Assembly (NCBI GenBank): GCA_023251555.1
Contig: JAHEYN010000001.1
Span: 75,433 to 139,432 of the forward strand
Length of the DNA: 64,000 nt
Reading direction: 5' to 3'
DNA from: Bacteroidota bacterium
Lineage (GTDB): Bacteria > Bacteroidota > Bacteroidia > AKYH767-A > JAHEYN01
Shown here one piece after another: positions 1,113-20,050 of this stretch (the first letter of the stretch is position 1; each line of letters starts with the position of its first letter). Made by a program: the position numbers and the translations under genes. The notes below the pieces were generated by a model that saw nothing but the letters and a program-made list of their open reading frames with translations, was not told the DNA's origin and ran no database searches.

Positions 1113-1317
1113 CTTCCTTTTGCAGGCTGGCTGCTAAGGCTTGAGCCGCTTGCAGGTACTCCCCGGTCAGAGGAGTCGTCTATGACCTAGATCATCCTAA
1201 AATATGACGGCCATCATAATCGGCGTTTTCAATTTTCATGAATTTTACAAGCGGAGAAACGGGCGACTTATCTTCAATTCCCCGCCCTGACATAAAGCAA
1301 CAGATGTAAATCTGTTA

Positions 1318-2133: not shown

Positions 2134-2136
2134 AAA

Positions 2137-2598
2137 ATGAACGCAGCGCCCCTTGTCCGGATTACCAAAACTTTTGGATTTGAAATGGCGCATGCTTTAT
2201 ATGGCTATGATGGTCCCTGCAGGAATATTCACGGGCATTCCTATGAACTTTCGCTGACAGTTTCCGGCAAACCGCTCCGGGATCCCGGGCACCCCAAGGC
2301 GGGAATGGTTATGGATTTCTCTGTGCTCAGGAGCATTGCGGAAGAGCGGGTGCTGAAACATTTTGACCATGCACTGGTTGTCAACGGGTTATCCCCGCAC
2401 CGGGAAATCAAAAACAACGGCGGCTTGTTTGAAAAGCTGATCAGTGTGGATTACCAGCCCACCTGCGAAAATCTCCTGCTTGACTTTGTTGAAAGAATCA
2501 GGCCTAACCTCCCGGAAGGTGTGTCACTTCATCACATGACGCTCAAAGAAACAGCTTCGTCCTATGCCGAATGGTTTGCTGAAGACAATAACGCCTGA
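2137..2598 (+). CDS. queD: 6-carboxy-5,6,7,8-tetrahydropterin synthase / 6-pyruvoyl-tetrahydropterin synthase family (QueD-like).
   Basis: It has the Cx5HGH zinc motif (CRNIHGHSYEL), a PTPS-like length of 153 aa, and the motif LVRITKTFGFEMAHAL. Confidence 0.8.
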   Translation: MNAAPLVRITKTFGFEMAHALYGYDGPCRNIHGHSYELSLTVSGKPLRDPGHPKAGMVMDFSVLRSIAEERVLKHFDHALVVNGLSPHREIKNNGGLFEKLISVDYQPTCENLLLDFVERIRPNLPEGVSLHHMTLKETASSYAEWFAEDNNA

Positions 2599-3952
2599 GA
2601 GCGCGCTCATTAAAAAATATAATGTCAGCGGGCCGCGGTACACGAGCTACCCCACTGTCCCTTACTGGTCTGATAATCCTTCCCGGGAGCAGTGGGCAGA
2701 AAAAGTGAGAATTGCATATAACGGGACAGCTTCCGGCCAAGGGATCAGTCTTTATATTCATCTTCCTTTCTGTGAAAGTCTCTGCACATATTGTGGCTGC
2801 AATACGCGCATAACAACAAATCACTCCGTAGAGAACCCATATATCAGGGCGCTTGCAAGGGAATGGAAAATGTACCTCGGGATTTTCGGGAGCAGGCCCC
2901 GCATCAGCGAAATTCACCTGGGAGGAGGCACCCCGACTTTTTTCAGCCCTTCGCGGCTGGAGGAACTTATGGATGAAATTCTTTCATCATCCGAGCTGCT
3001 TCCCTCTGCAGAGTTAAGTTTTGAAGCTCATCCCAACAGTACCTCGCTTACGCATTTAGAGGTATTACACCGCCTTGGCTTCAGGAGAATGAGTCTCGGT
3101 ATACAGGATTTTGACCCCCGGGTGCAGGCAATTGTGAACCGGGTACAAACCTTCGGCCAGGTTGAAAAGGTGGTTAATCATGCCAGGGCTACAGGATATA
3201 ATTCAATAAATTTTGATCTTATTTACGGGCTGCCTCTTCAGCAGGAGAGCAGTGTCGTTGGAACCATAGAGAAGGTTAACAGGATCCGCCCCGACAGGAT
3301 CGCATTCTACAGCTATGCCCATGTCCCCTGGATAAAACCCGGGCAGAGAAAGTTTACCGAAGCCGATCTTCCTGCCGATGATGTAAAACGGAAACTTTAT
3401 GAGAGCGGCAGAAGGATGCTCGAAGATGCCGGCTATACGGAAATCGGGATGGATCATTTTGCGCTCGCAACAGACGCACTGTATGCGGCTTCTGAAAAAG
3501 GAACCCTTCACAGGAATTTCATGGGCTACACTGCTTCTTATACCGGCCTTATGATAGGCCTCGGTGTTTCTGCCATAGGTGATACATGGGATTGCTTTGC
3601 ACAGAATGTAAAAAAGGTGGAAGATTATTACCGGATTTTGGAAAATGGCCGGCTCCCTGTGTTCAGGGGACATCTTCTCGACAAAGAAGATCTTGTTCTC
3701 CGAAGGCACATCCTAAATATTATGTGCAGGCTTGAAACCTCCTGGGGAAAAAATGATATGAAAGTTCCTGTTTTAGATGATTGTATATCAAGGCTTTCGG
3801 AGCCTTTATCCGACGGGCTCATTACGCTTTCCCACTCTTCCCTCCGGGTGACCGGGAAAGGAAAGGCTTTTCTCAGGAACATCTGTATGGCTTTTGATGC
3901 AAGGCTGTGGAGAAACATTCCTGCATCTGAAATATTCAGCAAAGTGGTCTGA
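2564..3952 (+). CDS. hemN: Oxygen-independent coproporphyrinogen III oxidase, a radical-SAM HemN.
   Basis: It has the radical-SAM motif YIHLPFCESLCTYCGC, HemN-like length (462 aa) and the N-terminal YNVSGPRYTSYPT motif. It overlaps the upstream gene by about 35 nt, so the true start could be an alternative codon. Confidence 0.85.
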   Translation: MPNGLLKTITPESALIKKYNVSGPRYTSYPTVPYWSDNPSREQWAEKVRIAYNGTASGQGISLYIHLPFCESLCTYCGCNTRITTNHSVENPYIRALAREWKMYLGIFGSRPRISEIHLGGGTPTFFSPSRLEELMDEILSSSELLPSAELSFEAHPNSTSLTHLEVLHRLGFRRMSLGIQDFDPRVQAIVNRVQTFGQVEKVVNHARATGYNSINFDLIYGLPLQQESSVVGTIEKVNRIRPDRIAFYSYAHVPWIKPGQRKFTEADLPADDVKRKLYESGRRMLEDAGYTEIGMDHFALATDALYAASEKGTLHRNFMGYTASYTGLMIGLGVSAIGDTWDCFAQNVKKVEDYYRILENGRLPVFRGHLLDKEDLVLRRHILNIMCRLETSWGKNDMKVPVLDDCISRLSEPLSDGLITLSHSSLRVTGKGKAFLRNICMAFDARLWRNIPASEIFSKVV

Positions 3953-4069
3953 TATCCCTGTAAAAAATCAAAAAGGGTATCAAACAATGGAGTTAAAAGT
4001 ACTTGACTCTTCCCGTTTTTTTTTCTATATTTAAAGCATGTTGAATTTTAACTTAAAACCGGTAAGATT

Positions 4070-7027
4070 ATGAAATACAATGAAAAAATTATCAGGGTTG
4101 CGGCCCTGTCTTTAGTTTGTGCATCCGTACTCCTGTTTTTCCGCGAAAAAGGAGACTCCTTTTCATCAGGAAAAACCGCACACAGTTTTGATCCGTTTGA
4201 AAAGCATGCTGCCCCTGCTTACATAAAATCCCCCCTGAAAAAACCGGGCGTGAAGCCCGGTGAAAGAAGCAATGTAAAGATGGTGGAAAACTTCTTATCA
4301 CTCCCCCTGATCTTCAGGAAGAATATGGGGCAGTGGAACCCTGACGTTTTGTTTTGCGGGATGACATCAGGGGCTTCGGTCGCTTTTAAAAAGAACGGAC
4401 TTGCTTTTTGCGCTTCAAGGGAAGATGAAACTGCAAAGCATGCTGTTTCTCCAAAGGAGAACCAGGAAGATGTGTATGAATATCTGCAGTGGGATATGAC
4501 TTTTTCCGGTGCCAGGTCATCAGTAAAAATTTATGCTGAAGGCGAAGAGGACAGCCGGACAAATTATATTTTTGGCCAGGACGCTTCAAAATGGGTGATG
4601 AATGTTCCGGATTACCGGAGACTGAGATATGACGGCATCTATAAGAATGTTGACCTGCGTTACTATGGCTTGCAAAATAACCAGCTTAAGTATGATTTCG
4701 TGGTTAACCCCGGGGGCGATATCAGGGATATCCGGCTTTCTTTTACAGGGATAGAGTCGCTTTCCCTGAATGATGCGGGAGAACTTGAGATTACAACCCG
4801 CTTTGGTGTGGTGAAAGAGGCTGCTCCTTATTCTTACCAGGCTGCCGGTGGTGTTTCTGCACCTGTGGCGGTGAGGTATGAAATTAAGGATGATGGTAAG
4901 TCTTTCGGGTTCCGGGTTGACGAACAATATGACAAGACGCTCCCGCTTGTGATTGACCCTGTCTCCCTCAAGTGGAGCACATATATGAAAGCCACCGGGA
5001 ATAACTTTAATAATTATTCTTACGATGTGGCTGTTGACGCCTCTAAAAATGTTTATATAGTGGGTAAGTGCGACAATACTTTTCCTACTACCACGGGCGC
5101 AGCATACGGCGGGTCCACCACTGATGCTTTTGTAAGCAAGCTTAATTCTTCGGGTACGGCCCTTGTTTACTCTACCTACCTTGGCGGATCCAATGTGGAT
5201 GGGGCCATGAGCGTTATGGCAAACAGCAATGGGGAGGCTTATGTGGCGGGTTACACTACATCTACAAATTTCCCCACTACTGCGGGAGTTAAGCAAACTG
5301 CCTACGCCGGAGGCTTTGGGAATGATTGTTTTGTAACCAAACTCAACAGTGCGGGAGGTATCGGGTTTTCCACCTACCTCGGGGGAGGGGGAGAAGACCA
5401 GGCATGGTCACTTTTCTTAGCCAGCGGGGGAGAAATATATCTCACAGGGTTCTCTTCTTCAGTGAATTTCCCTGTTACTGCGGGTGCCTACCAGACTACA
5501 AACGCCATGGCAGGTATGAATGATGCGATTATTGTAAAACTTAATTCCTCGGCCAGCACCCTGTTGTATTCCACCTATCTGGGCGGAGCCGGACAGGTGG
5601 TTGCATGCCCCCAGGTCGACTGCGACAATATGTTTTGTTATGACAATGTCGCCTGTACAAATTTCAATGTGCTGAATGACTGGGGCTATGGTATCTGGGT
5701 GAACTCTTCGGGCGAAGCTTATGTTGCAGGAACTACCGAATCTCCCGAATTCCCTGTTACTGCGGGTGCGAAGCAGACTGTATTCGGAGGCGGGACAAAG
5801 GACGGGTTTGCAGTAAAACTGAACTCTGCCGGCACAGCTCTTTCCTATGCTACTTTCCTCGGCGGTTCCGCTGACGATTTTGCCGCTGATGTGTATGTTA
5901 ACGGCAGCGGTGAGGCTTATGTGGCCGGCAGGACGGAGTCAGGTAATTTTCCCACTACAGCAGGCGTTTACCAGACATCGCTCGGGGGAACTTCAGACGC
6001 TTTCGTTGCGAAACTCAATGCAACGGGAACGGCTTTAACATATTCTACCTATGTTGGAAAGTCGGGCTGGGATTATGCCACGGGAATCACAGTGAATACC
6101 AATGGAGAAGCGTATATCGCCGGGCGGACACAGTCCACCAACTTCCCTACTACGAGCAATGCATACCAGGCGGCATGGGGAGGGGGGAGCTGGGATATTT
6201 TTGCCTCGGTGCTCAACTCCACTGCCTCGTCTCTTCTCTGCTCATCTCTTATGGGCGGAAATGCAGATGATTATATGACCTGCCAGCTTGGAATAGATAT
6301 TACAGGTACTGTTGATACCATATACATCAATGGTACGACACACTCGACTAACTTCCCTACCACTACAGGAGTTTACCAGGCTACCAAGCTTAATTCCACG
6401 GGAGACCAGCCTGCGCTTTTTAAGATGGCAAGCTGCACCAACTCTGTACTTCCGGTCGAATTACTTGACTTTAAAGGAAATAATAACCAGGGCATAAACA
6501 TACTGCAGTGGCGGACAGTGTCGGAAACCAACTGCAATTCGTTTACCCTTGAGAGGAGCCTGGATGGTAATTCTTTTGAGCGGGTTGGAATGGTTTCATG
6601 CAGCGGTACAAGCAGTATTCCGCATGCTTATGAGTACAGGGATGACGTCGTTTCTTTTATGACAGAAGACAATACTTTTTATTACCGCCTCCGGCAGTTT
6701 GATTATGACGGCAATTATAAATATTCCGGAACCATCGCTATTGATGTGAAGGCAAGGCGCGAACTTCCTTACGTGCTTAATGTGAGCCCTGTCCCTGTTA
6801 CGAAGGAACTGAATTTTACTTTCAACAATCCTTCTGACGGACCGCTTTCTGCGGAGATTGTGGATATTGTCGGGAAGGTAGTTTACCGGCAGGACATGCC
6901 CGCCGTAAAACGGGGAATATCCGTTTCAAAAGTTACTGTTGATTTTCTCCCCGGAGGCTTATATATCCTCAGGATTGCCCGACAGGGAAGTGCAGGGGGG
7001 AGCGGAGCAAAATTTATAAAGGAGTAA
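4070..7027 (+). CDS. Large secreted protein (985 aa) with multiple SBBP beta-propeller repeats and a C-terminal T9SS sorting domain.
   Basis: An N-terminal signal/TM segment is present. Repeated units of the form YSTYLGG..D.A..V..SGEAYVAG.T.S.NFPTTAG occur about 8 times. The C-terminal ~80 aa (…VDIVGKVVYRQDM…LPGGLYILRIA…) match the T9SS CTD pattern. Confidence 0.7.
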   Translation: MKYNEKIIRVAALSLVCASVLLFFREKGDSFSSGKTAHSFDPFEKHAAPAYIKSPLKKPGVKPGERSNVKMVENFLSLPLIFRKNMGQWNPDVLFCGMTSGASVAFKKNGLAFCASREDETAKHAVSPKENQEDVYEYLQWDMTFSGARSSVKIYAEGEEDSRTNYIFGQDASKWVMNVPDYRRLRYDGIYKNVDLRYYGLQNNQLKYDFVVNPGGDIRDIRLSFTGIESLSLNDAGELEITTRFGVVKEAAPYSYQAAGGVSAPVAVRYEIKDDGKSFGFRVDEQYDKTLPLVIDPVSLKWSTYMKATGNNFNNYSYDVAVDASKNVYIVGKCDNTFPTTTGAAYGGSTTDAFVSKLNSSGTALVYSTYLGGSNVDGAMSVMANSNGEAYVAGYTTSTNFPTTAGVKQTAYAGGFGNDCFVTKLNSAGGIGFSTYLGGGGEDQAWSLFLASGGEIYLTGFSSSVNFPVTAGAYQTTNAMAGMNDAIIVKLNSSASTLLYSTYLGGAGQVVACPQVDCDNMFCYDNVACTNFNVLNDWGYGIWVNSSGEAYVAGTTESPEFPVTAGAKQTVFGGGTKDGFAVKLNSAGTALSYATFLGGSADDFAADVYVNGSGEAYVAGRTESGNFPTTAGVYQTSLGGTSDAFVAKLNATGTALTYSTYVGKSGWDYATGITVNTNGEAYIAGRTQSTNFPTTSNAYQAAWGGGSWDIFASVLNSTASSLLCSSLMGGNADDYMTCQLGIDITGTVDTIYINGTTHSTNFPTTTGVYQATKLNSTGDQPALFKMASCTNSVLPVELLDFKGNNNQGINILQWRTVSETNCNSFTLERSLDGNSFERVGMVSCSGTSSIPHAYEYRDDVVSFMTEDNTFYYRLRQFDYDGNYKYSGTIAIDVKARRELPYVLNVSPVPVTKELNFTFNNPSDGPLSAEIVDIVGKVVYRQDMPAVKRGISVSKVTVDFLPGGLYILRIARQGSAGGSGAKFIKE

Positions 7028-7169
7028 AAATTGATTACTTCTTGAAAATATTGTAGTCGTTACAAAAGGCCATGAAAAAGTGTGGCCTGAGGAAGCTTAC
7101 TTCTTCAAGTTTTCCATAATAAATTTCTTTTATTGTGTTTTGGCAATATGAGTTTCGGTTTATTAATAA

Positions 7170-7481
7170 TTGCAATTTGTTTCTATCATAGTAAAAATTC
7201 AAAAAAAAGTAATGCAGACAATATTTTACGCATATCAATTCTATTCAGCATTAGGCCTAATTTTAGACATAATTGGCGTTTTAATTTTATTTAAATATGG
7301 ACTTCCGAGCAAAATAAAAGAGTACGGGGGAGGGCTGTTACTTGAAGAAAATTTTGAAGAAGAAAAATTGAGAGTTTCAGAAAACAAAAAGATAACTAAA
7401 CGAGCATACCTTGGTTTGAGTCTTTTATTAGCTGGTTTTTTATTTCAATTTATAGGGACATTGTTATCGGTGAACAGTTAA
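7170..7481 (+). CDS. Hypothetical small membrane protein with two predicted TM helices. The start is uncertain and may be at about 7212.
   Basis: Hydrophobic stretches LGLILDIIGVLILF and LGLSLLLAGFLFQFIGTLL are the evidence. It lies in an A+T-rich region and nothing else supports it. Confidence 0.3.
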   Translation: MQFVSIIVKIQKKVMQTIFYAYQFYSALGLILDIIGVLILFKYGLPSKIKEYGGGLLLEENFEEEKLRVSENKKITKRAYLGLSLLLAGFLFQFIGTLLSVNS

Positions 7482-7547
7482 TTTAATATCAGAAACGGAG
7501 GACAATGAAGAAAAGAAAAACGAGTGCTAACAAGGGTTTTTAATTAT

Positions 7548-7627
7548 GCGGGAGTGGATAATTATTACTATAGAGTTTCAATTGACGGGCAAGCTATTAT
7601 AAGTAAAAAAATAGTTATTATCAAGTA
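7548..7627 (+). pseudogene. 3'-terminal remnant of a fourth member of the tandem T9SS-cargo paralog family (last ~25 codons only).
   Basis: In frame it translates to …GVDNYYYRVSIDGQAIISKKIVIIK*. This is homologous to the C-termini …GVYFYELKINNASILIDKIVIIK* and …GIYFYQITIDKQAIINDKIVIIK* of the downstream paralogs. Confidence 0.45.
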
Positions 7628-8599
7628 ATGAAAAATATATGTATTTACACATCATTATTTTTATTGCCATTTCGTCTTTGGTCTCAAACCAACTTAGTAC
7701 CCAATTATAGTTTTGAAGATACTATGAGTTGCCCGTCTATTTCTAAACTTGGAATGGTAAATGTAGTTGCTTGGTACTCTCCAACAAAAGGAACTCCAGA
7801 TTATTATAATCAATGTAGCTCTACTAATTATGCCAGTATCCCTAATAATAGGCATGGAGGTCAAGTGCCTTATTCAGGGGTTGCTTATGTTGGTATAGCT
7901 ACATTTAATTTATCAGCTCAAGAATTTAGGGAATATATAGAAGTGTTACTAAATGACAGTCTTAAATCTGGTAAAAAATATCATGTAGATTTTTACTTAA
8001 GTTTAGGAGATAGTGAACAATATATTTGCAATGATATAGGAGTTTATTTTTCGAATAATTCTATTAATGCAGGTAATTATAGTGTACTGCCGTATATACC
8101 ACAAGTTAGTAATGCAAATAACAATATGTTAAGCGATAAACTAGGATGGACAAAAATTTCAAAAAGTTTTATAGCTAATGGAGGAGAAAAATACATCACT
8201 ATTGGTAATTTTAAAAATGATGCTAATTCAGATACAATGTATGTTGGAGGAGCATGGGGGTATGATGTTGCTTATTATTACATAGACGATATCTCGGTGA
8301 TAGAAGATACTGCAACTGGAGTTGGTAAGATAAGTAATGAAAAAGAAAAATATAAGATAAAACTGTATCCTAATCCAAATGATGGGGGAATGCAGTTGGA
8401 TTATAACTTATCAGAGGGACAAACAGGCGAATTGATAATTTATAACATGATGGGAGAAAAAATAAACACTTATCATTTACTAAGCTCAAAGAATAATATA
8501 AAGATAAGTGAAGCTGCCTTAAAGAATGGGGTTTATTTTTATGAATTAAAAATTAATAACGCAAGTATTCTCATAGATAAAATAGTAATTATAAAATAA
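7628..8599 (+). CDS. Secreted T9SS-sorted protein, paralog 1 of 3. It has a signal peptide, an N-terminal ~210-aa jelly-roll/CBM-like domain and a C-terminal T9SS CTD.
   Basis: The signal peptide and the NLVPN.SFED…YYYIDDISV pattern resemble CBM4/9-type modules (inference). The C-terminal ~85 aa (KIKLYPNPNDG.MQ.DYNL.EGQTGELIIYNMMGEKINTYHLL…) are nearly identical in all three copies. Confidence 0.7.
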   Translation: MKNICIYTSLFLLPFRLWSQTNLVPNYSFEDTMSCPSISKLGMVNVVAWYSPTKGTPDYYNQCSSTNYASIPNNRHGGQVPYSGVAYVGIATFNLSAQEFREYIEVLLNDSLKSGKKYHVDFYLSLGDSEQYICNDIGVYFSNNSINAGNYSVLPYIPQVSNANNNMLSDKLGWTKISKSFIANGGEKYITIGNFKNDANSDTMYVGGAWGYDVAYYYIDDISVIEDTATGVGKISNEKEKYKIKLYPNPNDGGMQLDYNLSEGQTGELIIYNMMGEKINTYHLLSSKNNIKISEAALKNGVYFYELKINNASILIDKIVIIK

Positions 8600-8604
8600 C
8601 ATTA

Positions 8605-8637
8605 AAAGCTCTCCGATTTACCGGAGAGCTTTTTTAT
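8605..8637 (+). terminator. Rho-independent terminator candidate after paralog 1.
   Basis: There is a hairpin aaagctctccg-attta-cggagagcttt followed by a T-run. Confidence 0.5.
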
Positions 8638-8643
8638 TAAATC

Positions 8644-9618
8644 ATGAAAAAGATTTTATATTTTTCATTTTTTATTTTACATTCTGCATTTTACATTCCT
8701 TCTTTTGCTCAAAACATAGTACCCAATCCAAGTTTTGAGGATACTGCTAGTTGTCCTGATAATTTAGGAGAAATCTATAGGTCGCTTTATTGGTATTCTC
8801 CAACAACAGGTTCTCCAGATTATTATAATCAATGTAGTTCTTCTGTTTATTGTGGGGTTCCAAATAATTGGTATGGAAGTCAAATACCTAACACAGGTGT
8901 TGCTTTCGTTGGGATGGGCACATTTGTATTAGGAAATACAAACCTTAGAGAATATATACAGACAGTGCTAATTGATACGCTAAAAGGAGGCAAAAAATAT
9001 AATGTAGAATTTTATGTAAGTTTATCTGATAGTTCGCAATATGCTTGCAGTAATATAGGAGCATATTTTTCTATCAATCAGGTTACGAGTGGAAATGATA
9101 AGAATTTACCCGATACTCCACAAATCAGCAATCCCCTCAATAATATCTTATCAGAAAAAATAAATTGGACAAAAATTTCGGGGAGTTTTATTGCATCAGG
9201 GGGAGAAAAATATATTACTATTGGAAATTTTAAAGATGATGCTAATTCGGACACCCTCTATGTTGGAGGGCCTTCTTGGTATACTCTTGCTTATTATTAC
9301 ATAGATGATGTATCAGTGATAGAGGATACTACGACTGGGGTGCGGGAATTCAGTAATGAAAAAGAAAGGTATAAGATAAAACTCTACCCCAACCCAAACA
9401 ATGGTACTATGCAGATGGATTATAATTTAACGGAGGGACAAACAGGTGAATTGATAATTTATAACATGATAGGAGAAAAAATAAACACTTATCATTTACT
9501 AAGCTCAAAGAATAATATAAAGATAAGTGAAGCGGCATTACAAAATGGAATTTATTTTTATCAGATAACTATTGATAAGCAAGCAATTATTAATGATAAA
9601 ATAGTCATCATAAAATAA
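8644..9618 (+). CDS. Secreted T9SS-sorted protein, paralog 2 of 3.
   Basis: It has the same architecture as 7628-8599. The N-terminal domain is diverged and the C-terminal CTD is near-identical. Confidence 0.7.
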   Translation: MKKILYFSFFILHSAFYIPSFAQNIVPNPSFEDTASCPDNLGEIYRSLYWYSPTTGSPDYYNQCSSSVYCGVPNNWYGSQIPNTGVAFVGMGTFVLGNTNLREYIQTVLIDTLKGGKKYNVEFYVSLSDSSQYACSNIGAYFSINQVTSGNDKNLPDTPQISNPLNNILSEKINWTKISGSFIASGGEKYITIGNFKDDANSDTLYVGGPSWYTLAYYYIDDVSVIEDTTTGVREFSNEKERYKIKLYPNPNNGTMQMDYNLTEGQTGELIIYNMIGEKINTYHLLSSKNNIKISEAALQNGIYFYQITIDKQAIINDKIVIIK

Positions 9619-9630
9619 ATTACAAATTAC

Positions 9631-9672
9631 GAAAGAACCTTTGATAAAACTTCATCAAAGGTTCTTCCGTTT
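9631..9672 (+). terminator. Hairpin terminator candidate after paralog 2. This is the intact version of the hairpin that is split by the IS after paralog 3.
   Basis: The hairpin is gaaagaacctttgat - loop - atcaaaggttcttc, followed by a T-containing tail. Confidence 0.45.
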
Positions 9673-9681
9673 ACAATAGGT

Positions 9682-10659
9682 ATGAGAGGAAAAAAATTTG
9701 TTATTTACTGTATATTGTTTATTGTTTGCCATTTGGCATTTTCTCAGGCTAATTTAGTGCCTAATACAAGTTTTGAAGATACTATTGGATGTCCTAATTG
9801 GGTGGGGCAAATCAATAAGGTAACTAGTTGGTACTCTCCTACAACAGGTACTCCCGATTATTATAATAAATGTTGTACTTCCACTTATTGTACGGTTCCT
9901 AATAATTGGTATGGGAATCAAGCGTCTAATGTAGGCGTTGCATACATTGGAATAATTTCATTTTCTTTATCGGCTTCACAATTTAGGGAGTATATTCAGG
10001 TACTACTAAACGATAGTTTGAAAAATGGTAGAAAATATCATGTAGAGTTTTATGTAAGCTTAGCGGATAGTATGAATTATGCTTGTAATAATATCGGAGC
10101 TTATTTTTCAGTAATACCTATTAGTAGCAATAATTATTTATATTTACCATATACACCTCAAGTAAGTAACCCAGATAGTAATTTATTAACCGATAAAATT
10201 TCTTGGACTGAAATATCAGGAAATTTTATTGCAAATGGAGGAGAAAAATATATTACGATAGGAAATTTTAAAAATGACGCTAATTCAGATACGCTTTATG
10301 TTGGGGGTCCAACATGGTCTAATGCTGCTTATTATTTTGTAGACGATGTATCGGTAATAGAAGATACAGCAGCAACAGGATTAAAGGAATTAAGTAATGA
10401 AAAAGAAAAATATAAGATAAAACTGTATCCTAATCCAAATGATGGTACTATGCAGATGGATTATAGTTTAACAGAGGGACAAACAGGCGAATTGATAATT
10501 TATAACATGATGGGAGAAAAAATAAACACTTATCATTTACTAAGCTCAAAGAATAATATAAAGATAAGTGAAGCTGCATTAAAGAATGGTGTTTATTTTT
10601 ATCAGATAACTATTGATAAGCAAGCAATTATTAATGATAAAATAGTCATCATAAAATAA
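9682..10659 (+). CDS. Secreted T9SS-sorted protein, paralog 3 of 3.
   Basis: Same architecture as the other two. Its last ~250 nt and the first ~27 nt of 3' flank are identical to paralog 2. Confidence 0.7.
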   Translation: MRGKKFVIYCILFIVCHLAFSQANLVPNTSFEDTIGCPNWVGQINKVTSWYSPTTGTPDYYNKCCTSTYCTVPNNWYGNQASNVGVAYIGIISFSLSASQFREYIQVLLNDSLKNGRKYHVEFYVSLADSMNYACNNIGAYFSVIPISSNNYLYLPYTPQVSNPDSNLLTDKISWTEISGNFIANGGEKYITIGNFKNDANSDTLYVGGPTWSNAAYYFVDDVSVIEDTAATGLKELSNEKEKYKIKLYPNPNDGTMQMDYSLTEGQTGELIIYNMMGEKINTYHLLSSKNNIKISEAALKNGVYFYQITIDKQAIINDKIVIIK

Positions 10660-10784
10660 ATTACAAATTACGAAAGAACCTTTGATTGTAAATCTTCAGC
10701 GAAAGTTGGATAATTAAAGGTAAAGAAATAAGGTGGTATTTAAAGGGAAATAGTAATTAAATTTAACCTTTAAAATCACTAAAA

Positions 10785-11132
10785 ATGAAAGACAAACAAA
10801 GTGCAAGCTCCTATGTAAGGGAGATCAAAAGAAGAACCCGCAGGAGATTTTCATCAGAAGAAAAAATAAAGATCATTATAGAGGGATTACGGGGAGAAGA
10901 CAGCGTAGCAGCTATCTGCCGTAAGTATTCGGTCCATGAAAACCTGTACTATAAATGGAGTAAAGAATTCATAGAAGCAGGGAAGAGACGTTTGAATGGA
11001 GATACTGTAAGGGAAGCAGGAAGCGATGAGGTAAATGATCTGCGTAAAGAGAACGTGCAGTTGAAAGACGCTGTGGCGGACTTGACAATAGAGAATCGTG
11101 TGCTCAAAAAAAGCTTGAATGGGCTGGAATAA
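10785..11132 (+). CDS. IS3-family transposase OrfA with HTH and leucine-zipper-like regions.
   Basis: It has the typical IS3 OrfA features (RRFSSEEKIKII…ICRKYSV…YYKWSKEF) and a C-terminal heptad Leu region. Confidence 0.85.
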   Translation: MKDKQSASSYVREIKRRTRRRFSSEEKIKIIIEGLRGEDSVAAICRKYSVHENLYYKWSKEFIEAGKRRLNGDTVREAGSDEVNDLRKENVQLKDAVADLTIENRVLKKSLNGLE

Positions 11133-11149
11133 GGGAAAGGAAAAAGCAC

Positions 11150-12157
11150 ATGAGATTCAGTCAAAGTGAAAAGATGGAAATCATCAAGATGGTTGATGGT
11201 TCCAATGTAAGTGCTAACAGGACATTGAAGGAACTGGGAATAAATCCAAGCACGTTCTACATCTGGTATAAACGGTATCTGGAGGGAGGCATTGATGCAC
11301 TTGCCACAGGCAAGAGAGAGCAGAACCGGATATGGAATAAAATACCTGTTCAGGAAAAGAACCGTGTAATTGACGTAGCCTTGGATAAGCCCGAGCTTTC
11401 TTCGCGGGAACTTGCCTGGCATATCACCGATAAGCATAAGCGATACATCAGTGAAAGCAGTGTTTATAGGATACTTAAGGAAAGAGGACTTATAACAGCT
11501 CCGGCACACATTGTTTTATCGGCCGGCGATGAGTTTGAAAAGAAAACAGGATTTGTCAATGAAATGTGGCAGATCGATTTTACTTACTTCAGGATCATTG
11601 CATGGGGTAATTATTACCTGTGTACCATTATCGATGATTATTCCCGCTTTATCGTGGCCTGGGAGCTAAAGGAAAGCATGAAATGGGACGATGCACGGTC
11701 AACAGTTGATAAGGCTGTTTTTAACACCGGATTGACACAAAATCAAATGCCTAAACTTTTATCCGATAATGGCCCCTGTTTCATTGCACATCAGTTCAGG
11801 GATTACCTGAGCGATATGGGTATCAGGCAAATTAACGGAGCTCCATTGCATCCTCAAACGCAAGGAAAGATTGAACGCTATAACAGAACGATGAAAAACG
11901 TTGTAAAGCTTGATAATTATTACAGCCCTGAAGAGCTCAAGCGGGCACTGGATGAGTTTGTTCATCATTACAACTATCACCGCTATCATGAATCGATCAA
12001 CAATCTTACCCCATCTGATGTTTTTTTTAAACGGGGAACTGCTATCATAAAACAGCGTGAAAAAATCAAACTGCAAACAATCAAAAAAAGAAAGGAGGAA
12101 TACTTCAAACTCAAACAAAAATCAACAACACAAAAAATTAACTTAACTTTGAATTGA
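11150..12157 (+). CDS. IS3-family transposase OrfB (DDE integrase core), in the -1 frame relative to OrfA.
   Basis: It has the rve-type motifs WQIDFTYF, IIDDYSRFIVAWEL and SDNGPCFIA. OrfB is in frame 2 and orfA in frame 0. An A7G run lies near the orfA end. Confidence 0.85.
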   Translation: MRFSQSEKMEIIKMVDGSNVSANRTLKELGINPSTFYIWYKRYLEGGIDALATGKREQNRIWNKIPVQEKNRVIDVALDKPELSSRELAWHITDKHKRYISESSVYRILKERGLITAPAHIVLSAGDEFEKKTGFVNEMWQIDFTYFRIIAWGNYYLCTIIDDYSRFIVAWELKESMKWDDARSTVDKAVFNTGLTQNQMPKLLSDNGPCFIAHQFRDYLSDMGIRQINGAPLHPQTQGKIERYNRTMKNVVKLDNYYSPEELKRALDEFVHHYNYHRYHESINNLTPSDVFFKRGTAIIKQREKIKLQTIKKRKEEYFKLKQKSTTQKINLTLN

Positions 12158-12200
12158 TGGCCCGAAATGCCACCTTATTTTTTAAATCAAATTCTCCAAT

Positions 12201-12980
12201 TTACCTTGAAGACGTACACCATGCTATTCTTCTACCCATTATAGGTTTACCATCACTTAGAACATGAACTGGAAAATTTGATGAGACTTTACTGATATCC
12301 AACTGTTGTTTTAATAAATAATTGACAGCACCATTTAATAACATTATAGTTTTTTCATTATAAATATCTTTTATAAATACTTTGCTTAAAAAAACTATTA
12401 CGCTTGACATTCCATGAGCAAGTCCTAAATCGCATCCTTGTATTTCTTTTTCGAAATCAATAATGGTGTTCCATTTTATTGAACCATCTTTATTTTTTAT
12501 ACTTTGTTTTTCTAATTCATCTACTAATTCTTTAATATAATTTATACATTGCTTTTTATATACCCTATTAATTAAATATACTCCGTTTCCAATTGCACCA
12601 TGAAGAAAATCAAAATTTCCATTTTTGATATCATACATCATTTTCCTATAAATAAATTCATCTAAATCATCCAAAAACAAAACATCTTCTTTCTTCATAA
12701 AATTGTTTTGAGTTAAATGCTCCATTGCCCAAGCCAAGCCACCTATTCCATCACAAAAAGTATGAAAGTTATATCCTTTGTTAATAGAGTTTAATACATC
12801 AATAATTAAATTCCGCGCTTTTTTTGCGTAAACTTCTTCTTTGATAAATTTAGAATAATAATAATAAAATAAAGCAATACCACTTTTTCCTGTTAATAGG
12901 CCAATGTTGAGATGCTCCAAATTTTCACTTTCAAGACTTTTGGTAATATTTTTCAAAGTATTTTTTAATTTGGTTATCAT
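12201..12980 (-). CDS. LanC-like (lanthionine-cyclase fold) domain protein, apparently C-terminally truncated. The reading frame runs about 15 nt into the right end of the IS and stops there.
   Basis: It has the LanC-type repeats GLLTGKSGIALFYYY, FLHGAIGNGVYL and GLAHGMSSVIVFL and ends …IAWCTSSR*, just where a WCxG motif would begin. At 259 aa it is much shorter than the ~400 aa typical of LanC. Its composition is extremely A+T-rich. Confidence 0.45.
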   Translation of the reverse strand: MITKLKNTLKNITKSLESENLEHLNIGLLTGKSGIALFYYYYSKFIKEEVYAKKARNLIIDVLNSINKGYNFHTFCDGIGGLAWAMEHLTQNNFMKKEDVLFLDDLDEFIYRKMMYDIKNGNFDFLHGAIGNGVYLINRVYKKQCINYIKELVDELEKQSIKNKDGSIKWNTIIDFEKEIQGCDLGLAHGMSSVIVFLSKVFIKDIYNEKTIMLLNGAVNYLLKQQLDISKVSSNFPVHVLSDGKPIMGRRIAWCTSSR

Positions 12981-12994
12981 TGTTTCATTACTAT

Positions 12995-14731
12995 TTATTT
13001 TCCTGTTCTTATAAACTCCAAAGCGCGTTCTGAAACTTCATCTCTATGTTCTCGAATTCCCTTGATTGTTGGCACTGCATAAATATCAGGTTTTATTCCT
13101 ACCCGTTGAGTTGGTCTTCCATTAGGATAAAAAACAGCATCGGCAGTAAAATATGTAAGAAAATTATTTTGGATAAGAAATGATACAGCTTCTCCATCAG
13201 TGCCTGAAGTATTATTTCCAACTAAATTTATTTTGTATAATGCCTTCATCCCCATAAGTGTCCATTCTTCAGCACTTTGAAGATTTTCATCAATTAATAA
13301 TACCACTTTCCCTCTATATTTTTTATGGAATGCTGGCAATCCCAATAAAAACATATATTTTTGTTTGGTCAATAAATATGTTCCCGGGTATTTCCAATTT
13401 CTAAAATAATAATTTGTAAGTTGTACATTTTTCTTATGTAATTTGGGCAATCTTAACAACACACTATACCATAACCAAACATTATCAACATTTCTAATAT
13501 CAAAAATCAGTGCTTTTGAATTTTTTAAATTTTTATATTTTTTTCTAAAATTTTTCATTGTCCCGATACCCGATAAATTTATATATCCTATTGAATCTTC
13601 TGATGAATATGTAAAATTATTTATTGCCGAACCGGTCATCCACTGTTCTTTTTCAGATAGGTTATTTAGATTAAAAGAGACAGCCTTTGTTATATTAGTT
13701 GAATCAGAAACTGTAATTGTAATATCTTTTCCTTCAGGAACAAAATGAGACATAAATATCCCGTTATCTATTTCACGATCAACGGAAAGTTGATGCGAGC
13801 AACCGCAATACTTTCTCAGATCATTTCTTATTTCATCAATAGGAATTCTATTAATTGAAAGGATTATATCACCCTGCTTTAAATTCGTTTTGACGGCAAC
13901 AAACGAATCAATGTCAGAAATTACGGTTTTATTTTCAATAAATTTTACGATAAATGGAATACTTCTCCAATCTATGTAAGATTTGAGCATGCCTACTTCA
14001 TGATTAAAATTATAATTATCATAATAACCATGACAGTCATTAATTTTTGTTATCAGTTCTGCAATTGTTGAATAAAATTTGGAACTATTTGCGCTCTCAA
14101 GTATTTTGGGAATAAATTGGTTAAGAATGTTATTCCAATTTTCATCTGTTATTTTCTTGTACGCGAAAAAATAATTTATGGCATTCCAATAACGAAAAAA
14201 TGCAAGTAAAGCATGAGCAGTATCCGGATAGTAATCACTTTCATAATAGTATTTATCTTTTCCATTTTCATCATAATATTTGTTTAATTCTCTTTTTAGA
14301 TATATATTTTTCCGCGGTTTGTAATTTTCTATTATTTCCCAAAGCAATCTACTATTATCTTTAGTAAATAAATTTTCATTATTAATCCATGAGAAATCAA
14401 AATTATTATATGATGTGTCTTGAGGTAAGTATTTGTAAGGTCTGTCAAGTTTTTTAACTCTACCCGGCAGCAAGATAAGTTGGTTAATCTTTTCATTATA
14501 CTCTTCGTTATTATTATCTATCAATATTTTGGGTATATATAAAATCAATGTTGTATCCCAATCAATTTTTCCTTTTTGAATTTCATGATGGTAGTATTTT
14601 AAATATCCCCATATTCGACATAATCCTTCAAGTTGCTGAATTTTTAGTGAATCAATAGTATAGATATTTTGACAATATATATGTAATATTGAAAAAAGAA
14701 ATACTAAAGAAATCAATATTTTTTTTTTCAT
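12995..14731 (-). CDS. S41-family (C-terminal processing/tail-specific) peptidase with a PDZ-like segment and a signal peptide.
   Basis: It has the S41-like motifs LIFDIRNVDN, VVLLIDENLQSAEEW and PNGRPTQRVGIKPDI, a PDZ-like LKQGDIILSINRIPIDEI and an N-terminal signal. Confidence 0.6.
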   Translation of the reverse strand: MKKKILISLVFLFSILHIYCQNIYTIDSLKIQQLEGLCRIWGYLKYYHHEIQKGKIDWDTTLILYIPKILIDNNNEEYNEKINQLILLPGRVKKLDRPYKYLPQDTSYNNFDFSWINNENLFTKDNSRLLWEIIENYKPRKNIYLKRELNKYYDENGKDKYYYESDYYPDTAHALLAFFRYWNAINYFFAYKKITDENWNNILNQFIPKILESANSSKFYSTIAELITKINDCHGYYDNYNFNHEVGMLKSYIDWRSIPFIVKFIENKTVISDIDSFVAVKTNLKQGDIILSINRIPIDEIRNDLRKYCGCSHQLSVDREIDNGIFMSHFVPEGKDITITVSDSTNITKAVSFNLNNLSEKEQWMTGSAINNFTYSSEDSIGYINLSGIGTMKNFRKKYKNLKNSKALIFDIRNVDNVWLWYSVLLRLPKLHKKNVQLTNYYFRNWKYPGTYLLTKQKYMFLLGLPAFHKKYRGKVVLLIDENLQSAEEWTLMGMKALYKINLVGNNTSGTDGEAVSFLIQNNFLTYFTADAVFYPNGRPTQRVGIKPDIYAVPTIKGIREHRDEVSERALEFIRTGK

Positions 14732-14774
14732 TGCATATTAAATATGCCAGTAAAGTTATAGTATTTAATTAGAA

Positions 14775-15181
14775 TAAGAATAGTATCAGGCAAATTAACG
14801 GAGCTCCATTGCATCCTCAAACGCAAGGAAAGATTGAACGCTATCACAGAACGATGAAAAACGTTGTAAAGCTTGATAATTATTACAGCCCTGAAGAGCT
14901 CAAGCGGGCACTGGATGAGTTTGTTCATCATTACAACTATCACCGATATCATGAATCGATCAATAATCTTACCCCATCGGATGTTTTTTTTAAACGGGGA
15001 ACTGCTATCATAAAACAGCGTGAAAAAATCAAACTGCAAACAATCAAAAAAAGAAAGGAGGAATACTTAAAACTCAAACAAAAATCAACAACACAAAAAA
15101 TTAACTTAACTTTGAATTGATGACCCGAAATGCCACCTTATTTTTTAAATCAAATTCTCCAATTTACCTTGAAGACGTACA
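14775..15181 (+). mobile_element. 5'-truncated second copy of the same IS3-family element (3' ~400 bp only: the orfB C-terminus plus the right IR).
   Basis: The sequence is near-identical to 11820-12218. The orfB C-terminal 103 aa are identical apart from an H/N and an L/F substitution, and the same right terminus …gaagacgtaca is present. Confidence 0.8.
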
Positions 15182-15208
15182 ATTAGTAATTACCGACTGA
15201 CACGGGCC

Positions 15209-15595
15209 ATGAAAAAGTATTTTCTTTCTGTTCCTTTGTTTATTGCGGCTTCTCTCTTCATTATCTCCTGTAAAAAAAACGGGACCGGGGGGGAGGCTGT
15301 TGTTACTGCATCCGTTAAACACCACGATAAAAATATTTACGGGGCCACCGTTTACCTTAAGTTTAATGCAAAAGAGATGCCATCCGATCCCGCCGTTAAT
15401 TATGATCTGAAGCTTACGGCTGACTCAGCCGGGGAGCATGTGCATTTTAAAGGGCTTTTGTACGGTAATTATTACCTGTATGGGCGGGGCTACGACAGTT
15501 CTATTGCACAGACTGTTAGCGGAGGTATTCCTTTGAAAATAAAATGGAGTGAAAGGAAACAGGAGATTGAAGTGACTGTACCGGTAACGGAATAA
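15209..15595 (+). CDS. Hypothetical lipoprotein.
   Basis: It has a signal peptide with a lipobox (…LFIISCKK) and is small (128 aa). Confidence 0.5.
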   Translation: MKKYFLSVPLFIAASLFIISCKKNGTGGEAVVTASVKHHDKNIYGATVYLKFNAKEMPSDPAVNYDLKLTADSAGEHVHFKGLLYGNYYLYGRGYDSSIAQTVSGGIPLKIKWSERKQEIEVTVPVTE

Positions 15596-15611
15596 CCAGA
15601 TGGCTTCCAGG

Positions 15612-16595: not shown

Positions 16596-16655
16596 ATGAT
16601 ATAAAAACCGGAGAAAAAATTTTACTGCTTATCAGTCTCCTGCTGTCTGCCTGTT

Positions 16656-17384: not shown

Positions 17385-17386
17385 GA

Positions 17387-18472: not shown

Positions 18473-18477
18473 AATAA

Positions 18478-20045: not shown

Positions 20046-20050
20046 GAGAT

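Follow-up and report, generated by a model that had tools for sequence, protein, structure and literature searches.

Three open reading frames lie in tandem on the forward strand of the window, the whole 64,000-nucleotide stretch of Bacteroidota DNA that was analyzed. They encode proteins of 323, 324, and 325 amino acids, designated p1, p2, and p3. In all three the motif N(L/I)VPNxSFEDT directly follows a hydrophobic leader that ends in S or A before a Gln, and the motif YY(Y/F)(I/V)DD(I/V)SVIEDT marks the end of the amino terminal domain (N-domain). The reading frames and motifs confirm the initial annotation of three co-directional genes of 323 to 325 residues, each with a signal peptide and an N-domain of ~210 residues. 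The source annotation lists p2 as a 234-residue protein with its start placed at an internal Met. The array has the following features.

7628–8599, + strand: p1, 323 amino acids
p1 residues 1–19, + strand: predicted signal peptide, cleavage between WS and Q
p1 residues ~21–231 (7688–8320), + strand: jelly-roll N-domain
p1 residues ~246–323 (8363–8596), + strand: type A T9SS C-terminal domain (CTD), PF18962 and TIGR04183
8604–8633, no strand: hairpin in the p1/p2 spacer, 13 bp, GC-containing, T and A runs on both sides, terminator-like
8644–9618, + strand: p2, 324 amino acids
p2 residues 1–22, + strand: predicted signal peptide, cleavage between FA and Q
8710–9342, + strand: p2 N-domain
9382–9615, + strand: p2 CTD, PF18962 and TIGR04183
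9629–9670, no strand: hairpin in the p2/p3 spacer, 19 bp, terminator-like
9682–10659, + strand: p3, 325 amino acids
p3 residues 1–21, + strand: predicted signal peptide, cleavage between FS and Q
9745–10386, + strand: p3 N-domain
10423–10656, + strand: p3 CTD, PF18962 and TIGR04183, a mosaic of p1-like and p2-like tracts

The left arm of the hairpin in the p2/p3 spacer recurs 3′ of p3 and is interrupted there by an IS3 element.

The carboxy terminal regions of all three proteins score above the curated cut-offs of the T9SS models PF18962 (42–44.2 bits; cut-off 27 bits) and TIGR04183 (37.8–40.6 bits; cut-off 23 bits). The matches span residues ~246–323 and give a CTD of ~76–80 residues, so the T9SS domain first proposed stands and its size of ~85 residues does not. 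Structure prediction gave a β-sandwich that superposes on solved T9SS CTDs. A Sec signal peptide was read by inspection as a basic amino terminus and a hydrophobic helix (residues 3–19 in the AF2 model), followed by S or A and then Q. The position of this cleavage site is consistent with the Bacteroidetes Q-rule, according to which signal peptidase I cuts just before Gln (PMC5837995). The T9SS export route and the Q-rule have been described (PMC9143113, PMC10202324, PMC5837995). Indirect evidence for a T9SS machinery (SprA/Sov, PorK/L/M/N, PorV, PorU) in the host is that it belongs to the Bacteroidota and that the window holds two more CTD-bearing genes of host GC content at 4070–7027 and 60884–61798, the CTDs of which are only 20–29% identical to those of the array. 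The CTD scores support the assignment of p1–p3 as T9SS type A cargo. They share a Sec signal peptide and a C-terminal β-sandwich sorting domain of ~75–80 residues with mirolase, NucA, FspA, and the gingipains, and differ from these in their passenger, an uncharacterized jelly roll.

The N-domain was modeled as a confident β jelly roll (AF2 pLDDT 94.3). Its best Foldseek matches among solved structures are CBM61, CBM4 (3k4z/3p6b), CBM16, and CBM22. Structure prediction had been posed as the refutation test of the jelly-roll idea, and it returned that fold. The reminiscence of CBM4/9 modules noted at the outset holds for the fold and does not extend to the Pfam CBM_4_9 threshold or to a catalytic module. 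Against PF02018 (CBM_4_9), which has a gathering score of 25.9, p2 scored 15.0 bits, p3 scored 17.0 bits, and p1 had no match. Weak PF02018 matches occur in 10 of 108 relatives (best E-value 5e-4), and one multi-copy relative reaches 27.7 bits over the whole protein, with no single stretch passing alone. No catalytic domain was found in p1–p3, and the sampled relatives have no GH or PL fusion. CAZy defines a CBM as a module appended to a carbohydrate-active catalytic domain, and p1–p3 fall outside this definition. The N-domain shares a first-strand N-x-x-F-E, a last-strand x-D-D-(V/I)-S-(V/L), and the weak PF02018 matches with the CBM4/CBM9/CBM16/CBM22/CBM61 group (PF02018). It differs from that group in its identity of 9–18%, in a score below the Pfam gathering threshold, in an invariant Cys37–Cys64 pair, and in lacking an attached glycoside hydrolase or lyase domain; it is also ~60 residues larger than typical CBMs and belongs to a family far more conserved than theirs. 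The porphyran-binding CBM of a marine Bacteroidota T9SS protein (PDB 8xmz) is 15% identical over 127 aligned residues, belongs to a different family, and gives no hint of a ligand in common with the array. As modeled, the CBM resemblance is at the level of the fold only. We infer a carbohydrate ligand from the fold alone because no CAZyme module is attached and the neighbors of family members elsewhere are other T9SS cargo, not polysaccharide utilization loci.

The N-domain family comprises 12,403 representatives at E ≤ 1e-3 (~12,400 clusters at 50% identity) and has no Pfam or NCBIfam model. Its mean identity is 47%, with about a dozen invariant residues. Members occur as small stand-alone T9SS cargo, as three to four copies in giant adhesin-like proteins, and as OmpA fusions. 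The N-domain is combined with CTDs of type A or type B and with OmpA domains, and the partner domains in the sampled relatives are CTDs, Ig/PKD/cadherin/HYR/SprB repeats, and OmpA. Thousands of Bacteroidota surface proteins now labeled "hypothetical" could be annotated once this family is defined and characterized.

The invariant polar residues are N24, N28, E32, D59, R102, E103, Q160, E188, D221, and D222, and the aromatic residues W50, Y104, Y119, and W175 are invariant as well. So many invariant polar residues are unusual, and the ~210-residue domain exceeds typical CBMs and stands alone without a catalytic partner. These features would suit an enzyme, such as a lyase, hydrolase, or cyclase on a CBM-like scaffold, instead of a passive binder. 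We consider this reading unlikely. Nearly all of the best-matching structures are CBMs or sugar-binding domains without catalytic activity, and giant cadherin/Big_9/PKD adhesin-like proteins carry the N-domain in three to four copies, as is typical of binding modules. E32 and D221/D222, which are among the invariant acidic residues, are located in the first and last strands, which in CBM4/9-type modules usually form a structural Ca2+ site. Ligand binding is the most likely role of the jelly roll as modeled, with a glycan as the probable ligand, and the many invariant polar and aromatic residues suggest that family members share the same ligand. The large N-domain, its unusual conservation, and the periplasmic OmpA fusions of relatives fit poorly with a role in scavenging diverse glycans from the environment.

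Among p1–p3 the N-domains are 63–65% identical in amino acids and 71–72% in nucleotides, which agrees with the half to two-thirds originally noted. Pairwise dS is 0.91–1.08, dN/dS over the whole domain is 0.23–0.31, and divergence is even along the domain. These values identify p1–p3 as old paralogs under purifying selection. All family-invariant residues are kept. The three proteins differ at 81% of the least conserved family positions compared to 5% of the most conserved, and at 55% of the non-strand positions compared to 34% of the strand positions. The proposal that the functional domain diversifies is thus not borne out in an adaptive sense, since the dN/dS is low and the differences fall at family-variable positions, mostly in loops. 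Tandem surface-protein genes that differ mainly in loops and adjoin mobile DNA could also be diversity-generating or antigenic-variation cassettes in which positive selection drives the N-domains apart. This is very improbable given the whole-domain dN/dS and the ordinary, family-variable sites that vary. A separate start codon and signal peptide are present in every copy, p1 and p2 are each accompanied by a hairpin, and no invertase, invertible promoter, or silent-cassette architecture was found at the array.

The CTDs have a different history. Over the last 246 coding nucleotides, identity is 83.7% for p1/p2, 88.6% for p1/p3, and 93.9% for p2/p3. These values qualify the near identity of the CTDs claimed in the initial annotation, which is closest in a 101-nucleotide core and the 62-nucleotide tract within it. 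Likewise, the ~250 nucleotides plus flank said to be shared by p2 and p3 are 94% identical over the CTD and 100% identical for 95 nucleotides only. The tracts are listed below.

8414–8514 (p1), + strand: CTD core, 101 nucleotides with 2 polymorphic sites across p1–p3
8453–8514, 9472–9533, and 10513–10574, + strand: 62-nucleotide tract identical in p1–p3, inside the core
9551–9645 = 10592–10686, + strand: p2/p3 tract, 95 nucleotides, 100% identical, covering the last 68 coding nucleotides and 27 nucleotides of 3′ flank
8331–8385 (p1) = 10391–10445 (p3), + strand: p1/p3-specific conversion tract, 9 consecutive informative sites (permutation p = 0.004)

In p3, the 95-nucleotide tract stops exactly at the left end of the IS3 element. 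The p2/p3 pair agrees at 18 consecutive informative sites (permutation p = 1e-4), and the permutation test gave no significant run for p1/p2. The segments of p3 run in the order p1-like, p2-like, shared, p1-like, p2-like. The CTD dS is 0.26–0.63 compared to 0.91–1.08 in the N-domains. Of the residues that are identical between paralogs, 0–6% are encoded by different codons in the CTD core and 28–42% in the N-domain, and the contrast in synonymous codons between CTD and N-domain is significant for two of the three pairs (Fisher p ~1e-5); for p1/p2 it is significant in the core only (whole CTD, p = 0.29). Divergence is therefore uneven along the genes. Uniform divergence had been named with the initial annotation as the outcome that would refute homogenized CTDs, and the gene-conversion reading offered there is upheld by the permutation tracts, the p3 mosaic, the identity that extends into non-coding flank, and the lowered CTD dS. 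The companion idea, that the export tag was duplicated very recently, is the less probable of the two because p3 is a mosaic of p1 and p2. These sequence comparisons indicate that repeated short-tract interlocus gene conversion between old paralogs homogenized segments of the CTD. Short identical tracts, a mosaic copy, segment-limited low dS, and extension into the flank are shared with other cases of interlocus gene conversion and concerted evolution of tandem bacterial paralogs. The mechanism is ordinary; what sets the array apart is the retention of conversion in the export tag and not the passenger, a pattern that recurs in other genomes. The gingipain/hemagglutinin "cleaved adhesin" domains (Kgp K1, PDB 4itc) and the recombining 3′ regions of Porphyromonas gingivalis rgpA/kgp/hagA were also compared. 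There the genes are scattered and their products are large proteases or adhesins, whereas the array consists of small single-module genes in tight tandem with homogenization confined to the CTD.

Three other origins of the CTD likeness were weighed. The CTDs must be recognized by a single secretion machine, and the 3′ ends lie directly upstream of the next gene, as does a 3′ gene relic upstream of p1. Stronger purifying selection or nucleotide-level constraint, for instance an embedded promoter for the next gene, might then suffice without conversion. We regard this as highly unlikely. Across the family, conservation is lowest in the CTD (26% identity compared to 47% for the N-domain), and CTD identity exceeds N-domain identity in 0.4% of family pairs. 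Synonymous sites are also identical in the array, identity runs 27 nucleotides beyond the stop codon, p3 switches between p1-like and p2-like tracts, and the two other T9SS CTDs of the window are as divergent as noted above. No promoters were identified, and the Bacteroidetes –7 motif (TAnnTTTG) is absent from the 3′ ends and spacers of the array. Alternatively, recombination could have placed unrelated N-domain cassettes, perhaps taken from another genome, before a common CTD of recent duplication; the CTD would then record the true duplication, and the N-domains would be replacements. This module swapping has somewhat more in its favor and is still improbable. Tandem pairs elsewhere combine saturated N-domains with near-identical CTDs (50% versus 96% amino acid identity in L022 and 49% versus 90% in L007), and the association of the N-domain with both CTD types and OmpA shows that domain shuffling does happen. 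However, the p1–p3 N-domains are closest to one another (63–66% compared to ≤56% for all other sampled sequences) and group as a clade in a neighbor-joining tree. Their even divergence and the several short alternating tracts in the CTD, in place of one breakpoint, also argue against swapping. Finally, the source is a MAG contig (ENA ERZ27297570, 476,781 bp), in which collapsed or chimerically joined repeats could create apparent identical tracts. It is extremely improbable that this explains the pattern, since the exact tracts are only 62–95 nucleotides, below read length, and lie inside well-diverged unique sequence, the three ORFs are intact and in frame, and the pattern recurs in independent assemblies.

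The array lies on DNA that differs sharply in composition from its flanks. The relevant features are as follows.

7028–14782, no strand: low-GC island, 29.3% GC and GC3 ~20%, with flanks of 44.4% GC and GC3 ~49%
7554–7627, + strand: 3′ relic of a CTD gene, the last ~21–25 codons, ending in YYYRVSIDGQAIISKKIVIIK and a stop that abuts the p1 ATG
10687–12218, + strand: IS3-family element, orfA 10785–11132 and orfB 11150–12157

The composition steps at 7028 and ~14783 are sharp in both GC and GC3, which supports the claim of an acquired island. The island holds the array, is interrupted by the full IS3 element, and ends on the right in a 5′-truncated IS3 copy that is 98% identical to the full one. 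We did not detect an integrase in the island, a tRNA gene in positions 1–20000, or direct repeats flanking the island. The best matches elsewhere are 44–56% identical. The terminal inverted repeats of the IS3 element are TGTAAATCTTCAGCGAAAGTTGG and (reverse complement) TGTACGTCTTCAAGGTAAATTGG, and no target-site duplication was found at 10687–12218. This element has cut short both the p3 terminator and a LanC-like gene. Similarity of the relic to the array genes begins at ~7554 in nucleotides or at 7563 in the peptide, and its stop codon is at 7625–7627. The similarity exceeds chance (shuffle p ~0.0003–0.001), and none of 294 control windows in the island reaches its score. The fourth-copy stub placed at 7548–7627 is therefore real and shorter than first drawn. 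The array probably arrived already triplicated, because the copies are old (dS ~1) and yet have a GC3 of ~20% in a host with a GC3 of ~49%. The same values, with a deletion stub on the left and IS3 on the right, do not support the description of an expanding family; an array that was imported complete and is now eroding is more probable.

Taken together, p1–p3 are quite likely old tandem T9SS cargo paralogs with jelly-roll binding modules, whose CTDs were overwritten by gene conversion within an imported array. The sequences show an old divergence of the N-domains (dS ~1) under purifying selection and repeated overwriting of 3′ CTD segments, for p2/p3 including the 3′ flank, which left p3 a mosaic and a core common to the three genes. 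The array would have come as a block on the 29% GC island from a presumed low-GC donor. On its left, nothing but the 3′ tail of another copy remains, and on its right it is cut by IS3. The host is an uncultured MAG, and the route of the proteins is drawn from established T9SS biology. They would be exported by Sec and cut by signal peptidase I just before Gln. In the periplasm, each would fold into a ~210-residue Ca2+-type β jelly roll (CBM4/9/16/22/61 class) and a ~78-residue β-sandwich type A CTD. The T9SS would recognize the CTD and carry the protein across the outer membrane, where a PorU-type sortase would remove the CTD. The mature jelly roll would then either be released or become attached to anionic LPS at the cell surface.

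The pattern is found beyond this locus. Five other arrays have a CTD dS of 0.06–0.8 and saturated N-domains, and three other arrays lack CTD homogenization. CTD identity exceeds N-domain identity in 16 of 34 tandem pairs compared to the 0.4% of random family pairs. Neutral conversion combined with purifying selection against passenger conversion explains these recurrence data equally well as selection for homogenization. The locus is a clean textbook case of tag-confined concerted evolution on an acquired, IS-eroded island; it is no new kind of system and leaves the established picture unchanged. Recurrent CTD-only homogenization offers a comparative handle on the co-evolution of T9SS signals with their machinery. 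A broader proposal, which we hold to be doubtful, is that CTD-restricted homogenization is a recurrent selected feature of tandem T9SS arrays and that the family is a surface-recognition module with S74 coupling. If so, the 3′ segment of the export tag would be a conserved recombination handle that keeps the copies matched to one secretion and anchoring route, or alternatively lets passenger modules shuffle between copies. The jelly-roll family of ~12,000 clusters would represent a major, as yet undescribed module for surface recognition in Bacteroidota, the ligand of which is conserved, and ~10% of family loci would be functionally coupled to a Peptidase_S74 fiber-like T9SS partner. The downstream partner gene is conserved and recurs at family loci elsewhere.

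The three tandem paralogues that make up the array (p1, p2, and p3) were recovered with the sizes, shared direction, and domain layout described by the initial annotation.

7628–8599, + strand: p1, ORF of 323 aa
8604–8633: terminator-like hairpin after p1
8644–9618, + strand: p2, ORF of 324 aa
9629–9670: terminator-like hairpin after p2
9682–10659, + strand: p3, ORF of 325 aa

The spacers are 44 nt between p1 and p2 and 62 nt between p2 and p3. Protein alignment divides each product into a hydrophobic leader that ends in S/A and is followed by Gln, a ~210-aa N-domain that starts with N(L/I)VPNxSFEDT and ends with YY(Y/F)(I/V)DD(I/V)SVIEDT, a short linker, and a C-terminal sorting domain (CTD). 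The CTD occupies residues ~246–323 of p1–p3 and matches the T9SS type A sorting domain models PF18962 (Pfam) and TIGR04183 (NCBIfam) above curated cut-offs. The three N-domains match no curated family; the only hits are sub-threshold ones of p2 and p3 to CBM_4_9, with scores of 15–17 bits against a cut-off of 25.9. The source assembly lists p2 as a 234-aa protein (P0013) called from an internal Met. This call leaves out the signal peptide and the first 90 residues, a stretch of conserved family sequence, and is likely a mis-annotation.

Established T9SS biology (PMC9143113, PMC10202324, PMC12618676) suggests the export route of p1–p3. The proteins would be exported by Sec, with signal peptidase predicted to cut before Gln on the basis of the Q-rule (PMC5837995), and would pass through the T9SS translocon in a CTD-dependent manner. 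The CTD would then be removed and the protein released or anchored to anionic LPS. Two host-GC genes in the window carry T9SS-type CTDs, which points to T9SS use in the recipient genome.

4070–7027, + strand: 985-aa DUF7948/SBBP beta-propeller protein
60884–61798, − strand: 304-aa protein

Divergence along the array genes is uneven, and the homogenized CTD noted in the initial annotation is borne out. Whole-region Nei-Gojobori estimates, which come from three sequences at dS ~1, gave an N-domain dS of 0.91–1.08, dN of 0.25–0.28, and dN/dS of 0.23–0.31 for the p1–p3 pairs, compared to a CTD dS of 0.26–0.63. Sliding identity rises to 97–100% in all three pairs at alignment codons 270–300. Exact comparison located 62 nt that are identical in p1, p2, and p3 (8453–8514, 9472–9533, and 10513–10574), and the 101-nt core around this stretch has 2 polymorphic sites, a binomial probability of ~1e-19 at the N-domain polymorphism rate. 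The p2/p3 identical tract is 95 nt (9551–9645 and 10592–10686) and reaches the 3′ flank, including 27 nt 3′ of the stop codon. In a GENECONV-style permutation of informative sites, the p2/p3 tract (p = 1e-4) and a p1/p3 tract (8331–8385 = 10391–10445; p = 0.004) were significant, and p1/p2 had no significant tract. Segments that are p1-like and p2-like alternate in p3. Codons differ at identical residues in 28–42% of cases in the N-domain, 8–20% in the whole CTD, and 0–6% in the CTD core.

Constraint on the protein could produce similar CTDs, but it is ruled out as the cause here because CTDs across the family diverge more than N-domains. Mean identity among 88 type A relatives is 47% for the N-domain and 26% for the CTD, the CTD is the more similar part in only 0.4% of pairs, and the array CTDs are only 20–29% identical to the CTDs of the two other genes in the window. 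The same contrast could arise if foreign N-domains had been imported wholesale. The N-domains of p1–p3 form a clade, (p1,(p2,p3)), relative to their nearest outside homologues, which makes such import unlikely. Conservation of the 3′ end, and of the relic abutting the p1 ATG, as the promoter of the next gene was not supported by motif searches: TAnnTTTG does not occur in the spacers or 3′ ends of the array genes, and sigma-70-like matches are no more frequent than in shuffled sequence, with the caveat that existing models capture Bacteroidota promoters poorly. Identical tracts arranged as a mosaic, and the contrast at synonymous sites, lead us to conclude that the 3′ segment has undergone repeated short-tract interlocus gene conversion between otherwise old paralogues. 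A literature search on gene conversion of T9SS CTDs returned nothing specific.

The analysis gave no evidence that diversification of the functional domain is adaptive. Family residues that are invariant (N24, N28, F31, E32, C37, W50, C64, P73, Y119, Q160, W175, G194, and F196; numbering of P0001) or nearly invariant (D59, Y60, R102, E103, Y104, E188, D221, and D222) are all kept in p1–p3. Of the least conserved family positions, 81% differ among the paralogues, compared with only 5% of the most conserved, and differences are more common outside strands (55% versus 34%). Together with the low dN/dS, this pattern is, at the level of sequence, one of ordinary purifying selection with free loops.

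Homogenization restricted to the CTD recurs in independent arrays. One-genome-per-species contigs contain at least 583 family loci, mostly in Bacteroidota MAGs, and tandem arrays of 2–5 are common (e.g., loci L002, L007, L024, L028, L044, and L074). Four arrays have a CTD dS of 0.06–0.28 and an N-domain dS that is saturated or >1.3. CTD-only homogenization is absent from arrays L005, L040, and L059.

Amino acid identity in arrays with CTD-restricted homogenization
L022, 2–3145: N-domain 50%; CTD 96%, dS 0.06
L007, 7003–8990: N-domain 49%; CTD 90%
L028, 4955–7670: N-domain 59%; CTD 82%
L042, 3926–6158: N-domain 79%; CTD 86%, dS 0.28

The neighbors of family loci are other T9SS cargo, not SusC/D loci. 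In regions of ~8 kb surrounding the matches, a giant (1,250–2,400 aa) protein with the jelly-roll domain is often followed directly by a small member (L003, L008, L028, L031, L047, L048, L058, and L076). Roughly a tenth of the loci carry a homologous, fibre-like T9SS gene containing Peptidase_S74 immediately 3′ of the family gene; jackhmmer matches to this partner were kept only if they covered its N terminus, and matches to the shared CTD were excluded. Through segmental tandem duplication, some loci carry arrays of as many as six units, each a family gene plus a ~150-aa N-terminal partner fragment. The family gene and the Peptidase_S74 gene may be a functional pair; the window has no such partner. 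A toxin-immunity reading of the alternating 320-aa and 150-aa genes of L084 was dismissed, since this duplication created the 150-aa ORFs, each of which corresponds to the N-terminal part of the Peptidase_S74 gene downstream.

Loci with the family gene and Peptidase_S74 partner or fragments
L084, 1–10300
L120, 6001–12978
L119, 6001–10802
L121, 6001–9035

The relic upstream of p1 was evaluated by alignment to the p2/p3 tails. Its nucleotide score was exceeded in ~0.05–0.1% of shuffles, and 294 control windows taken from the AT-rich island all scored lower. The translation of 7482–7627 ends ...AGVDNYYYRVSIDGQAIISKKIVIIK*; this peptide agrees with the p2/p3 tail at 13 of 20 positions and is co-terminal with it at the stop codon (p ~3e-4). 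These scores and the peptide match identify the stub, on sequence grounds, as a genuine CTD-tail relic of the array's own lineage. The fourth copy postulated earlier is thus represented by a real CTD tail, but the preserved part is ~7554–7627 rather than 7548–7627, and the sequence ahead of it is gone. The family HMM found no other relic in 6900–7640, 10650–10800, or 12150–15700. Directly upstream of the stub, the first gene of the island is a small low-GC ORF (7170–7481, + strand, 89–103 aa) with two predicted hydrophobic helices and no Pfam match.

Compositional foreignness supports the earlier view that the island was acquired. GC drops from 45–50% to 22–37% exactly past the stop codon of the upstream DUF7948/SBBP gene (7027) and regains the host level at ~14783–15200. 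Island GC is 29.3% and GC3 ~20%, compared to 44.4% and ~49% for the host. There is no tRNA or integrase near the island.

10687–12218: complete IS3 element, host-like GC, imperfect 23-bp terminal repeats, no target duplication
12201–12980, − strand: LanC-like (lanthionine-synthetase-type) gene
12995–14731, − strand: S41 (PDZ) peptidase gene, 578 aa, adjoining the LanC-like gene on the island
14783–15181: 5′-truncated IS3 copy, 98% identical to the full IS3 and ending at the same ...GACGTACA

The first nucleotide of IS3 is where the p2/p3 flank identity ends. The LanC-like gene matches only profile positions 4–222 of 350, and so is cut by IS3; together with the S41 gene, it may represent what is left of a lanthipeptide or peptide-processing locus. 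Both are bracketed by the full IS3 and the truncated copy, which lies in direct orientation 2.6 kb downstream, at the right-hand boundary of the island. This arrangement suggests IS-mediated rearrangement or deletion beside the array. Copies this divergent (dS ~1) that still have donor-like GC3 were most likely already triplicated before the transfer. Searches for the donor lineage or a fuller array found no close relatives, with best matches of 45–51% in genome contigs and 44% in metagenome contigs. A GcvT with 76% identity to Flavobacteriales-labelled MAGs places the host among uncultured Bacteroidota; the source contig is ENA ERZ27297570 (476,781 bp). With a deletion relic at one end and an IS at the other, the array of old copies is eroding and not expanding as first proposed. 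Further downstream, a hexapeptide transferase, an NAD-dependent epimerase, and a UDP-glucose/GDP-mannose dehydrogenase (18478–21373, − strand) open a long minus-strand run to ~49 kb that may be a surface-polysaccharide biosynthesis cluster.

The AlphaFold2 model of p3 (108-sequence alignment, mean pLDDT 94.3) consists of an all-beta N-domain, a low-confidence linker (233–235), and a beta-sandwich CTD.

Structural matches of the p3 model, with scores
GH51-associated module 6zps: 12.9
Stig cyclase 6a8x: 12.7
CBM61 2xom: 12.2
CBM4-2 4bj0: 12.1
CBM16 2zew: 11.6
CBM22 4xun/4xup: 11.5–11.6
Porphyran-binding CBM of a T9SS protein, 8xmz: 11.3
Kgp K1 adhesin domain 4itc: 10.9
CTD matches 8qb1 and 8glk_D: 10.6–11.0

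Foldseek was concordant (CBM4 3k4z/3p6b, CBM16, CBM22, and GH2 sugar-binding domains). A family-profile search of PDB sequences gave CTD matches only, and none to the N-domain even at E<=10. The suggested CBM-like jelly roll holds at the level of fold, but membership in CBM_4_9 is not established: the array N-domains fall below the Pfam threshold, show 9–18% identity, are ~60 residues larger, and are attached to no catalytic module. Fold and conservation suggest a Ca2+-stabilized jelly roll that would bind a conserved, probably glycan, ligand, and it is improbable that the N-domain acts as an enzyme.

The array fits known kinds, as tandem paralogues that evolve in concert and encode T9SS type A cargo with a CBM-like jelly roll. 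The analysis bears out the observation in the initial annotation, and most of its interpretation stands. The main value of the array is as a pointer to a very large uncharacterized domain family and to recurrent CTD-restricted homogenization. A word-indexed search returned >1,000 relatives, nearly all unnamed; most are 310–330 aa in length, and their CTD is of type A or type B (CHU_C). One homologue, P0120, is from the cultivable Crocinitomix catalasitica. When 1.84 billion representatives were searched exhaustively with a profile, 12,403 matched at E<=1e-3 and 3,117 reached E<=1e-30; among the matches are 1,700–3,400-aa proteins with 3–4 domain copies. Pfam scans of larger relatives found Big_9, cadherin-like, PKD, Ig_7, HYR, SprB, and CHU_C domains, and in others 2–3 jelly-roll copies followed by OmpA; these OmpA fusions account for some JGI 'OmpA-OmpF porin' labels. 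The jelly-roll domain also occurs, often in long proteins, in contigs labelled Planctomycetota, Pedosphaera (Verrucomicrobiota), Binatia, Phycisphaerae, and Eisenbacteria (L017, L049, L053, L066, and L068), which may reflect genuine spread outside Bacteroidota or binning contamination. By eye, the C-terminal regions of at least L017 and L066 are unlike the T9SS CTD.
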